Shown here in pieces: positions 278 to 44,340 of a stretch of 64,000 nucleotides of DNA (positions are counted from its first letter, which is position 1; the number at the start of each line of letters is the position of its first letter). The notes under the pieces were generated by a model. That model did not search any database, had not been told where the DNA came from, and worked only from the letters and a program-made list of their open reading frames with translations. The position numbers and the translations under genes are program-made. The stretch lies in sequence record PZ452595.1; one strand, written 5' to 3'. Source of the DNA: a phage.

Positions 278-360
278 TTTATTCTCCTTTGTTTGTGTAA
301 GATAATACTATCACAAAGGAACCGTACTGTAAACAACTTTGTGCAATCTTTGGAAAATAA

Positions 361-383
361 AAAAGGACTCCCGAAGGAGTCCT
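361..383 (-). terminator. rho-independent terminator after the 30.9-like ORF
   Basis: Stem AGGACTCC / GGAGTCCT with UUCG loop (minus sense) followed by a U-run; same 23-nt element recurs at 53713..53739. Confidence 0.6.
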
Positions 384-387
384 CAAC

Positions 388-564
388 TTATGCTTTCTGC
401 TTACCAAAACGAGAAGCATCATCTCGAAGAACCGCACGTGCTCGGCGCATGATCTTCTCAACAGTTTGATTGATACGAGAGTTCGACCCACGCTTGTAAC
501 CAGCGCGTTTAGAATCACCAACTTTCTTTTCAACTGCTTTCTTTGCTTTAGCTTGTTTTGCCAT
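388..564 (-). CDS. small lysine-rich protein (T4 30.9-like)
   Basis: ATG at 564 gives MAKQAKAKKAVEKK... (58 aa, highly basic); the 72-aa track ORF extends to an upstream ATG at 606 without a clear SD; position immediately downstream of rIII. Confidence 0.5.
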   Translation of the reverse strand: MAKQAKAKKAVEKKVGDSKRAGYKRGSNSRINQTVEKIMRRARAVLRDDASRFGKQKA

Positions 565-4400: not shown

Positions 4401-5808
<1,408 letters not shown>

Positions 5809-5812
<4 letters not shown>

Positions 5813-6039
5813 TTATTTTTCTCAACCAATGATTGAATATAATCATGCAGGTCTTTAGATGCTTTACCCCACTTATTTTGATATTCATTTTTGAGATTAG
5901 CACGTGATTGAGCTAATAAAACATCATTAGTTGGAGGTAAAGATTCTAACCGCTGAATCTGGCGTCCATAAATCATTGCAGCCATCTCGGATTCATAAAT
6001 CAATCCTTTGAGATGTTCAAATTGATGCCATGAAATCAT
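5809..6039 (-). CDS. hypothetical protein (pseT.x block)
   Basis: 76 aa ORF, ATG start. Confidence 0.5.
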
Positions 6040-6335
6040 TTACATTTATCCTCTTTTAACTCTTGGCGATAATAACATATCATAGTTTTCTGGTCATGTA
6101 CATATCGTTTTACATCATTAAGCCAAATACGAAATTCCTGGGAATCTTCAAATTGCATACCGACCCAAGCTTTACCATCAATAACTTTAACTTGCCAAGA
6201 TAGTTTAGCTTCGTCATATGACTTTATTTGTACAGGCCAATTAGGATGAACTGTTTCTTTCTTTACTTCTAGAGGCTTTGTCGAACAACCAACTAGAAGA
6301 CCAATAGATAATATTACTGCTGATAGTTTAATCAT
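6036..6335 (-). CDS. putative lipoprotein
   Basis: 99 aa; N-terminal signal peptide ending in lipobox-like LLVGC (MIKLSAVILSIGLLVGCSTK). Confidence 0.5.
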   Translation of the reverse strand: MIKLSAVILSIGLLVGCSTKPLEVKKETVHPNWPVQIKSYDEAKLSWQVKVIDGKAWVGMQFEDSQEFRIWLNDVKRYVHDQKTMICYYRQELKEDKCK

Positions 6336-40990: not shown

Positions 40991-42808
40991 CTATTGGCTC
41001 ATCCATTCTTTACGAAGGTCAGCATTATCTCCCATGAGCATTTCAAAAAGCTCTTTCCAGTTCTCAGGAAGTTTAACAACATCATATACTGGGTTTTGAA
41101 TCATCTCACGATATTCAGATTTTTCCAAAGAGCCAAGTCCTTTAATATAACGGATGCTATGTTTAGGTAAAGCATCTTTAGCACTCTCATATTCAGCGAC
41201 TGTATAAAACCATTCTTGTTTTTTACCGACCTGAGCGATGATTACAGGAGTTTTGACGAAGCGAATTCGTCCTTGCTCAAACAATTCTGGCCAATTACTA
41301 AAAAATCCAAGCAGAGAAGGATAAATGCTTCCTAGACCATCATGGTCAGCATCAGTCATAATAGCAATATTATGATAATTCAAGTTTTCAGCTTTTTCAC
41401 CGAGAACTAATCCAGTGATTGCGCAAATATCAAATAGTTCTTTGTTTTTAAGCATATCTGCATAAGACATACCCCAGCTATTAAGAACTTTACCACGCAA
41501 TGGATAACCACCGTGAAGTTCTTTATCACGAACATCAATAAGATATCCGATAGCAGAATCACCCTCAGTCAAGAAAAGAGTAGTGTCAGCATCTTTACCA
41601 CAAAGATTCGCTTTGATATGTTTATGAACCTTAGCTTTAGAAGCCTTTTTAGCTGCTTTAGTTTCTGCTGCTTTTTCTGCCGCCAATTTACGAGCCAAAG
41701 CAGCTTCAATAATCGGCATTAGAATTGCTTCATTATTTAGAATAGCACGTGAAATCTTTTTAGCATCAAGCTGAATATGACTACGGATTTCACCAAATGG
41801 AGAAGTCAAACGCTCTTTAGTTTGAGAATCAAATCGCATGTTTTTCATATCACGAACAAACATAACGATTGTCAAACATTCTTTTACACGCGCTTTAGTT
41901 ACATCAATTTTGAACTTACGTTTGATTTGTGGAATAAGGTCTTCACAAATATCATCCATAACACAGTCAATGTGATGGCCACCATTCTTAGTGTGAATGT
42001 TATTGACGTATGTTAATTGACGAAAACCATCCGGTGAACGACCAACCGCAATAGAACAATTTTCTTGTTCTTGAACGATAGCATGCTCATCATATTGGCG
42101 TGCATATTTCTTAAAATTGCCCTGAACCTTTTTACCATTAAAGGTAAATTGAATATCAGGATAAACTACTGCAAGTGTCTGGAGACGATCTAGTGTAATG
42201 TCAAGATAAACTTGGGACAGCTCATTAGTTTCAAATGACATAAAATCAGGAATGAAAGTAACACGAGTTCCTTTCCATTTTCCAGGAATATCTTCCCATG
42301 ATTTATTTTCCATGCCATTTGAACAACGAACTACAATATTATTTTGACCATCACCAGTTTCACCGACAAACATCACAGAAAAAATGTTTGTCAAACTAGA
42401 ACCAACACCATTCATACCACCGGTGACGCGTTCTTTATCATCACCGAAGTTACCACCTGCTTTTGGAATAGTCCATGCAGCAACAGGACCAGGAATTTCT
42501 TCACCGGTAGGTGTTTTAACCATCGCTTGTGGAATACCACGACCGTTATCTTCAACTGTTACTTGATTGTTTTTAATAGTAACATTAATTTTATTTGCGA
42601 ATTTAAACTTAGTACGAATACCTTCATCTACTGAGTTATCGATAATTTCATCAATAAGCTTAACAAGACCAGGTACATACTGAACACTTTCCCATTTACC
42701 AAACAGAAAGCGCTCATGCATTTCATTAGCAGAAGAGCCGATGTACATGCCACTGCGCTTTTTGATATGTTCAATATCGCTCAGAATTTTAATTTCATTC
42801 TTAATCAT
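40991..42808 (-). CDS. 39: topoisomerase II large subunit, unsplit (39 + 60 in one frame)
   Basis: ATG at 42808 (605 aa); GHKL ATPase motifs (EIIDNSVDE, GRGIP) and Toprim region (…IAIMTDADHDG…) in one continuous frame; no gene 60 gap. Confidence 0.93.
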   Translation of the reverse strand: MIKNEIKILSDIEHIKKRSGMYIGSSANEMHERFLFGKWESVQYVPGLVKLIDEIIDNSVDEGIRTKFKFANKINVTIKNNQVTVEDNGRGIPQAMVKTPTGEEIPGPVAAWTIPKAGGNFGDDKERVTGGMNGVGSSLTNIFSVMFVGETGDGQNNIVVRCSNGMENKSWEDIPGKWKGTRVTFIPDFMSFETNELSQVYLDITLDRLQTLAVVYPDIQFTFNGKKVQGNFKKYARQYDEHAIVQEQENCSIAVGRSPDGFRQLTYVNNIHTKNGGHHIDCVMDDICEDLIPQIKRKFKIDVTKARVKECLTIVMFVRDMKNMRFDSQTKERLTSPFGEIRSHIQLDAKKISRAILNNEAILMPIIEAALARKLAAEKAAETKAAKKASKAKVHKHIKANLCGKDADTTLFLTEGDSAIGYLIDVRDKELHGGYPLRGKVLNSWGMSYADMLKNKELFDICAITGLVLGEKAENLNYHNIAIMTDADHDGLGSIYPSLLGFFSNWPELFEQGRIRFVKTPVIIAQVGKKQEWFYTVAEYESAKDALPKHSIRYIKGLGSLEKSEYREMIQNPVYDVVKLPENWKELFEMLMGDNADLRKEWMSQ

Positions 42809-42861
42809 CACTTATCCTCGTTTGGTTTCGGGAATATTATACTCCAATAATCATAAAGCTA

Positions 42862-42877: not shown

Positions 42878-43138
42878 TTATTTAAAACGGATAGTCGAAT
42901 CCTTAAAGAACAGCCCAGAACATACTGTTCCTTCTACTTTCTGCCCAGTAGGTCCAATAGCACGAAATCCAGTATGCTGGAAATCATTTTCAGAGCAACC
43001 GAACCAATTATATCCAGTGATTTCAATATTAGTAAAACCACTTGAAGATAAAACTTTGGTTGCATTATCAGCATCAGTACATCCTGCTAACGACACTGCT
43101 AATACTAATGCTGCGATAGAACGATTAATATATTTCAT
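42878..43138 (-). CDS. putative lipoprotein (39.1 position)
   Basis: ATG at 43138 (86 aa); signal peptide with lipobox LAGC (MKYINRSIAALVLAVSLAGCTD). Confidence 0.5.
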   Translation of the reverse strand: MKYINRSIAALVLAVSLAGCTDADNATKVLSSSGFTNIEITGYNWFGCSENDFQHTGFRAIGPTGQKVEGTVCSGLFFKDSTIRFK

Positions 43139-43143
43139 AATTT

Positions 43144-43515
43144 TCACTTAAATTTAATGGCTTGAAGAAGACTAATAACTCTCAAGCGACTTCTTTCATC
43201 TTTAACTGTAAAAGAAAGAGGGTCACCAGATTTCATAGTAATAGTACATTCAAAATCAAAATCTTCGGAAACTTCTTTGAAGAAGTCAAATTCTTCATCA
43301 TAAATTAGAACATTACTCTGACAACTATGAAGAATTTTTCCATCATTTCCAGATGCTGTACTAATCATTGTAACATTATGACCTTTCATATCTTCAACGA
43401 TAAATTCACTAGTCAATATTACAGCATTAATAGAACTATTCCTATTACTAGCAGAAAGTAGATATTTCTGTTCTTCACCTTCACGAATGCGATATTTCTT
43501 ACCGATTTTAAACAT
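43144..43515 (-). CDS. hypothetical protein
   Basis: 123 aa, ATG start. Confidence 0.55.
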   Translation of the reverse strand: MFKIGKKYRIREGEEQKYLLSASNRNSSINAVILTSEFIVEDMKGHNVTMISTASGNDGKILHSCQSNVLIYDEEFDFFKEVSEDFDFECTITMKSGDPLSFTVKDERSRLRVISLLQAIKFK

Positions 43516-43517
43516 AA

Positions 43518-43694
43518 TTACCCTTTAAGTAAGTCGTAAAAACCACCATTCACATGCTTAGGAGCAGAAGGCCGACGAGTAGACAAACGATGACATTTAG
43601 GGCAAACATCATTTTCTCGTTCAGAAATCTTTTTAATTTTTTCATATTCATGCCCACAATCTTCGGATTGGCATTTATAATCATACATTGGCAT
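43518..43694 (-). CDS. zinc-ribbon small protein, not in ORF track
   Basis: 58 aa hand-translated (MPMYDYKCQSEDCGHEYEKIKKISERENDVCPKCHRL...); two CxxC pairs; AAGGA 6 nt upstream of ATG. Confidence 0.45.
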   Translation of the reverse strand: MPMYDYKCQSEDCGHEYEKIKKISERENDVCPKCHRLSTRRPSAPKHVNGGFYDLLKG

Positions 43695-43696
43695 AA

Positions 43697-44122
43697 TTAT
43701 TCCTTAAAGTGTGCTTTCAGCATTTGATACAAGGACCATGCCTGTTCATTATTTTCAATAGTAACTTTCATGACTGGGAATTCTGTGAAATCTTCTATTT
43801 GATCTTGCTCTTTCTCTTCCTGCTCTTGCTCTTCAACTGCCTGATATGGATTTTCCACTTCATCAAAGAACCCAGCTTCGTTAGTAGAAAGCCAGATAAA
43901 GTTTTCGTCAAGGATATCACCATGTGTTGCATATCCAACTGTGCCAGTAGATGTCACAATTTTAGTAGGACGACCAAGATGGTCAACATCTAAAATTTTA
44001 AAAGGATGCATACCTAAACGGCGCGCATAGATTCCGTTATCAGTATGATCTTTAATAAAATTTTCTTGAGCTTGTTTATTTTTAAATTGATACCATTTAT
44101 TAACTTCAAATCTAATAGCCAT
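43697..44122 (-). CDS. hypothetical acidic protein
   Basis: 141 aa, ATG start; Glu-rich stretch [12 protein letters not shown]. Confidence 0.55.
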
Positions 44123-44340
44123 TAATAAATTTCCTTCCAGTAAGTTGTACCGTCTTCAGTGATTTCACGGAATACACCATAAATCGGTTGTTTATCACCA
44201 ACCTTTTCATACACATAAACCGAAGTCAAGTGAGTAAACTTGATGGTGTGTTCCTTTTGAACTACTACCAAATTTGGATCAAATAATACATCTTCAAATT
44301 CATCATTAGTGCAATTCTGAACAATTTTACGTTTCATCAT
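44122..44340 (-). CDS. hypothetical protein
   Basis: 72 aa, ATG start (MM). Confidence 0.5.

Follow-up and report, generated by a model that had tools for sequence, protein, structure and literature searches.

The short minus-strand open reading frame (ORF) that lies directly after goF in the phage sequence analysed here (record PZ452595.1, 64,000 nucleotides, referred to as the window) is the T-even gene 39.2, encoding NwgI, which has already been named and whose function in T4 has been published; as a gene, it is nothing new. We consider it highly probable that this copy is the gene 39.2 of a T2-like Tequatrovirus and that its product is a 58-residue ribbon protein of the FmdB/Zn_ribbon_8 type which acts on the host GroEL. 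As a discovery the ORF carries little weight, given that 39.2 is named and widely annotated and that its function has been described in T4. It is mainly useful as an annotation check, since it escapes ORF callers that require at least 60 aa. The ORF was not listed in the window because it is short; most of the related genomes annotate 39.2.

The positions of the gene, its parts and its neighbours are shown in Table 1. A preliminary description of the window had proposed that a gap in the ORF track was filled by a minus-strand ORF, and the ATG-to-TAA frame found there gave a translation that matched the proposed 58-aa protein exactly. The AAGGA SD that it named was present six bases before the ATG. 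The start and stop were also packed tightly against the adjacent genes, as had been described: two bases separate the TAA of goF from the ATG, and two separate the 39.2 stop from the start of the next ORF. The placement of the ORF upstream of gene 39 is right in the direction of transcription, with a goF-like ORF and gene 39.1 intervening before gene 39 is reached.

Table 1. Gene 39.2, its sequence elements and its neighbours, in window positions and ordered along the direction of transcription.
Feature	Position	Strand	Remarks
cef	44122..44340		PF24050
goF (comC-alpha)	43697..44122	minus	Immediate upstream neighbour of 39.2; synteny anchor
Antisense ORF, 57 aa	43554..43727	plus	Overlaps 39.2
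SD-like AAGGA	43701..43705	minus	Six bases 5' of the ATG at 43694..43692; inside the last goF codons
Upstream junction TAATTATG	43692..43699	minus	goF stop, two bases, 39.2 start
Gene 39.2 CDS	43518..43694	minus	58 codons and a TAA stop at 43518..43520; encodes Gp39.2/NwgI
First predicted zinc knuckle, C8-QSED-C13 (C-x4-C)	43656..43673	minus	Preceded by the family motif MPxYDYKC
Second predicted zinc knuckle, C31-PK-C34 (CxxC)	43593..43604	minus	C31 and C34 invariant in the 101-sequence alignment
G50-G51-F52-Y53	43536..43547	minus	Counterpart of the bacterial FmdB KGSGFYSTDY motif; in the low-confidence C-terminal tail
Downstream junction TAATTATG	43513..43520	minus	39.2 stop, two bases, start of the 123-aa ORF
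goF-like paralog, 123 aa	43144..43515	minus	Immediately downstream of 39.2; phrog_622 (E=6e-30), which is goF's own PHROG
Gene 39.1	42878..43147	minus	phrog_902; synteny anchor; N-terminal lipobox-like LAGC
Gene 39, DNA topoisomerase II large subunit	40991..42811	minus	Unsplit form, ~605 aa; synteny anchor

The arrangement at the upstream junction suggests that the translation of 39.2 is coupled to that of goF. The element tttaaggaataa was kept 5' of the ORF among the T-even relatives, and goF coding may account for part of this conservation. Scans for sigma-70 promoters and terminators around 39.2 were uninformative on expression, with promoter-like sites fewer than in shuffled sequence. The junction TAATTATG was identical at both ends of 39.2, and its downstream copy was also observed in T4 and in several relatives; translation may be coupled at both of these sites.

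Judged on its sequence, the window belongs to a T2-like Tequatrovirus. Between positions 43100 and 44200 its DNA showed 99.1% identity with Salmonella phage UAB_60 and 98.1% with T2. The T2 record LC348380 carries the identical protein under the name 39.2, with goF on one side and, on the other, a hypothetical ORF followed by 39.1 and 39. The gene order was kept in the T2, T4 and RB69 records, where 39.2 immediately follows goF and precedes 39.1 and 39 in the same orientation. The gene belongs to a leftward, mostly non-essential block, motB-cef-goF-39.2-39.1-39. The window protein shared with the T-even Gp39.2/NwgI group its full-length identity, its position, a length of ~58 aa, the four conserved cysteines and the conserved C-terminal tail.

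Comparison of the alleles located the differences within the protein. The T4 Gp39.2 of modern records such as MT984581 is orthologous, is likewise 58 aa long and was 81% identical to the window protein; the 58-aa 39.2 of the literature agrees with these modern records. The 11 differing positions of the 58 fell mostly in residues 11-15 and 27-42, and the two proteins agreed fully in MPxYDYKCQSxDC at the N-terminus and in SAPKHVNGGFYDLLKG at the C-terminus. The RB69 gene 39.2 product (NP_861696) was 93% identical and is 59 aa long, carrying one extra Lys near the C-terminus in addition to four substitutions relative to the window, and its gene order goF-39.2-ORF-39 is that of the window. T4 differs in having no ORF at the position of the 123-aa goF paralog, which in the window separates 39.2 from 39.1 and which was present in T2-like and RB69-like genomes. 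Gene 39.2 of the window is thus flanked on both sides by relatives of goF, namely goF itself and the phrog_622 paralog. The window gene 39 is unsplit, as in T2 and RB69, and does not carry the gene 60 / 60.1 / mobA insertion that splits gene 39 of T4.

Short ORFs can raise the suspicion of a chance frame, and for a frame of this length in AT-rich DNA it had to be considered that the stretch separating goF from the following gene is a non-coding spacer or holds only a chance ORF. The overlapping antisense ORF of 57 aa further shows that frames of such a size arise by chance in this region. However, the variation among relatives had the pattern of a coding sequence: across 19 distinct T-even nucleotide versions, the variable sites were concentrated at third codon positions (11, 7 and 39 at positions 1, 2 and 3), and the median Nei-Gojobori dN/dS, taken over the 113 pairs with dS > 0.15, was 0.04. 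In each of the 20 relatives examined, the 39.2 frame ran for 61 codons or more without a stop, whereas the other frames were not conserved: the antisense frame, which spans 64 open codons in the window, was reduced to 30-51 elsewhere in that set. The ORF is also widely present, with tblastn matching 39.2 in 886 phage records, 852 of which cover at least 80% of the protein, and it exceeded the curated thresholds of the family models described below. From these sequences, 39.2 is under strong purifying selection, and the chance reading, whose probability we regard as negligible, is refuted by this selection together with the conservation of the frame. The antisense 57-aa ORF and the remaining frames were also considered as alternative genes and were rejected, as they are not conserved among relatives.

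The assignment of the protein to a zinc-ribbon family, as the preliminary description had proposed, was borne out by the curated models. Gp39.2 matched Pfam PF09723 (Zn_ribbon_8; E=6.7e-12) with 45.7 bits against a curated cut-off of 34.4, and NCBIfam TIGR02605 (the FmdB family, CxxC_CxxC_SSSS) with 44.9 bits against a cut-off of 31.3; it also matched phrog_1076 (E=7e-12). The four cysteines were retained in every relative retrieved. The ribbon spans residues 1 to ~41, with the second knuckle 17 residues past the first, and C8 and C13 were invariant in the relatives' alignment. Like the FmdB family, Gp39.2 presented the MPxYxYxC start, two Cys knuckles ~17 residues apart and a GFY motif past the ribbon.

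The claim of two CxxC pairs held for one pair and failed for the other: C31-x2-C34 is a CxxC, whereas C8-x4-C13 (CQSEDC) is not. In this respect Gp39.2 is unlike most FmdB members, whose first knuckle is usually CxxC. In the alignment of 101 sequences, the spacing of the first knuckle was CxxC in 78, Cx1C in 10 and Cx4C in five; Cx4C was the T-even form and Cx1C was observed in some phage clades, and the second knuckle was almost always CxxC. As the Cx1C and Cx4C forms were also found in other members that pass the family model, the alignment suggests that the Cx4C first knuckle of Gp39.2 is a variant of the family and not a failure to belong to it.

A second difference concerns the C-terminus. 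The SSSS in the NCBIfam name refers to a Ser-rich C-terminal tail, which is typical of members and lies outside the domain model. Many bacterial FmdB proteins have 30-60 more residues, and most carry a KGSGFYSTDY motif past the ribbon. Gp39.2, unlike most of them, does not have the long Ser/Thr/Lys-rich extension; no Ser-rich low-complexity tail was found, as the protein stops at residue 58. Its own short tail carries SAPKHVNGGFYDLLKG, including GGFY, and ends five residues beyond that motif. As the ribbon and GGFY are kept and the long tail is absent, Gp39.2 can be regarded as a minimal version of the FmdB family. A literature search on FmdB zinc-ribbon proteins found nothing on the function of the family.

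The predicted structure was consistent with this anatomy. An AlphaFold2 model built from the 101-sequence alignment had a mean pLDDT of 74 and placed strands at residues 3-8, 16-20 and 37-41. The pLDDT fell after about residue 41, over the last ~17 residues, and was below 50 at residues 47-51; the model obtained from the single sequence was poor (pLDDT 58). The architecture would therefore be that of one four-cysteine zinc ribbon (residues 1 to ~41) followed by a short flexible tail with GGFY. Searching the PDB with Foldseek returned no match with E < 0.1 for the model, and the best matches, which were non-significant (E 0.2-1), were to the zinc modules of MCM, aRF1, Sir2 and RbpA. These matches fit a generic zinc-ribbon fold for the model and nothing more specific. 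A sequence search of the PDB found no related solved structure, the only match being at chance level to ribosomal protein bL31 (E=0.78). From the invariant cysteines, the three-stranded model and the non-significant matches to zinc modules, we infer that Gp39.2 would bind zinc through its four cysteines. The idea that the GGFYDLL tail imitates the mobile loop of GroES as a feature particular to phages was considered and dropped, as the GFY motif is general to the bacterial FmdB proteins.

T-even phages need GroEL and the phage co-chaperonin Gp31 to fold their major capsid protein. Since capsid folding has this requirement, a factor that keeps a variant GroEL competent for its co-chaperonin would widen the host range. 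Gene 39.2 is said to have been first selected from RB69 in a GroEL selection by Ang and Georgopoulos (Genetics, 2012), who reportedly also saw that the T4, RB43 and RB49 homologues act similarly and that overproduction is lethal. In the discoverer's own account, the 58-aa peptide of T4 39.2 is described as modulating GroES/GroEL in a subtle way, with GroEL being shifted to the open conformation, and T4 deleted for 39.2 is described as completely blocked on certain hosts with mutant groEL (PMC5153855). The same text mentions genetic and biochemical studies and allele-specific groEL effects for T4 39.2 (PMC5153855), and an independent summary gives the same GroEL role for T4 Gp39.2 (PMC4396842). 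Both sources present T4 Gp39.2 (NwgI) as shifting GroEL towards an open state that binds the co-chaperonin (PMC5153855, PMC4396842, on Ang and Georgopoulos, Genetics 190:989, 2012).

Given the identity of the window protein to those of T2, RB69 and T4, and the position of its gene, we infer that the window allele would do the same job as T4 Gp39.2. In the proposed sequence of events, the message that carries 39.2 is probably polycistronic, and translation of 39.2 would be coupled to that of goF through TAATTATG. By orthology with T4 NwgI, the protein would then act on the host GroEL chaperonin, shifting the equilibrium between its open and closed states towards the open one, which is able to bind a co-chaperonin, either the host GroES or the phage's own. 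This would allow phage proteins that depend on GroEL to be folded in hosts with an otherwise non-permissive GroEL. The phage would be expected to grow without 39.2 on ordinary laboratory hosts but to need it on particular groEL mutants.

A different function is implied by the name that RefSeq and PHROG give to the orthologues, FmdB-like transcriptional regulator, according to which a small zinc-ribbon protein would bind DNA or RNA polymerase and control phage or host transcription. Among the Foldseek neighbours, RbpA and a YdjO-SigA model are indeed small sigma-factor binders, but these structural matches are non-significant (E ~0.7) and no sequence relative was found in the PDB. The name itself was inherited from one bacterial gene and not from a test of Gp39.2. 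Furthermore, the protein is only 58 aa long, Pfam gave only Zn_ribbon_8 above threshold and no DNA-binding domain, and no DNA-binding or RNA-polymerase-binding domain emerged from the Pfam, PDB sequence and Foldseek searches taken together. T4 Gp39.2, which has been characterised experimentally, gave chaperonin phenotypes. We therefore regard a role as a transcriptional regulator as improbable. The label is nevertheless widespread, and it hides the only experimentally supported function, which is the modulation of GroEL.

It could also be supposed that the ribbon protein has another primary target in the host and that the GroEL phenotypes of T4 are indirect, arising for example from an altered proteostasis load. 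The combination of the ribbon and GFY is common to a large bacterial family and, in the contexts sampled, this family has no chaperonin gene neighbourhood, which would agree with such a target. Against this, the genetics, the biochemistry and the groEL allele specificity reported in the discoverer's account argue for a direct effect (PMC5153855), and we give a separate primary target only a slight chance of being correct.

The relationship to the bacterial proteins raises a broader idea, in which the whole bacterial FmdB / Zn_ribbon_8 family consists of GroEL modulators, one of which was captured and minimised by the T-even phages. The idea follows from the fact that Gp39.2 keeps both hallmarks of the family, the ribbon and GSGFY. 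To our knowledge, Gp39.2 is the only FmdB / Zn_ribbon_8 member with an experimentally assigned function. No groES or groEL was found near the bacterial FmdB genes in three contexts (Propionimicrobium, Cutibacterium and a Candidatus Eiseniibacteriota metagenome contig). The Propionimicrobium and Cutibacterium contigs displayed a conserved arrangement of MoeA (on the opposite strand), 5-formyl-THF cyclo-ligase, FmdB, a SAF-domain protein and MscL, with no chaperonin gene within 6 kb of the FmdB gene (6001..6255/6303). We consider a chaperonin role for the entire family to be unlikely, and the family as a whole may have a primary target other than a chaperonin. That a modulator of GroEL from a phage is tied to a huge, uncharacterised family of bacterial zinc-ribbon proteins is a modest lead.

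The old T4 reference record, NC_000866.4, presented a different picture of the region from that of the modern T4 records, as it annotates 39.2 as a protein of only 45 aa. The 39.2 stretches of the two versions were compared over 5640..5839 of NC_000866.4 and 351..527 of MT984581, in the numbering of the pieces compared. Within 39.2, the old record differs from modern T4 by five substitutions and by one extra T immediately preceding the PKH codons. This extra T shifts the frame, so that the tail PKH...GGFYDLLKG is out of frame. Gene 39.1 starts with a lipoprotein-like signal in both the window (…ALVLAVSLAGC; 42878..43147) and modern T4 (…SLIGC; MT984581 88..348), and in NC_000866.4 it is annotated as 65 aa (5398..5595) without this start. 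From the sequence comparison, the missing start of 39.1 is a further hint of errors in this part of NC_000866.4.
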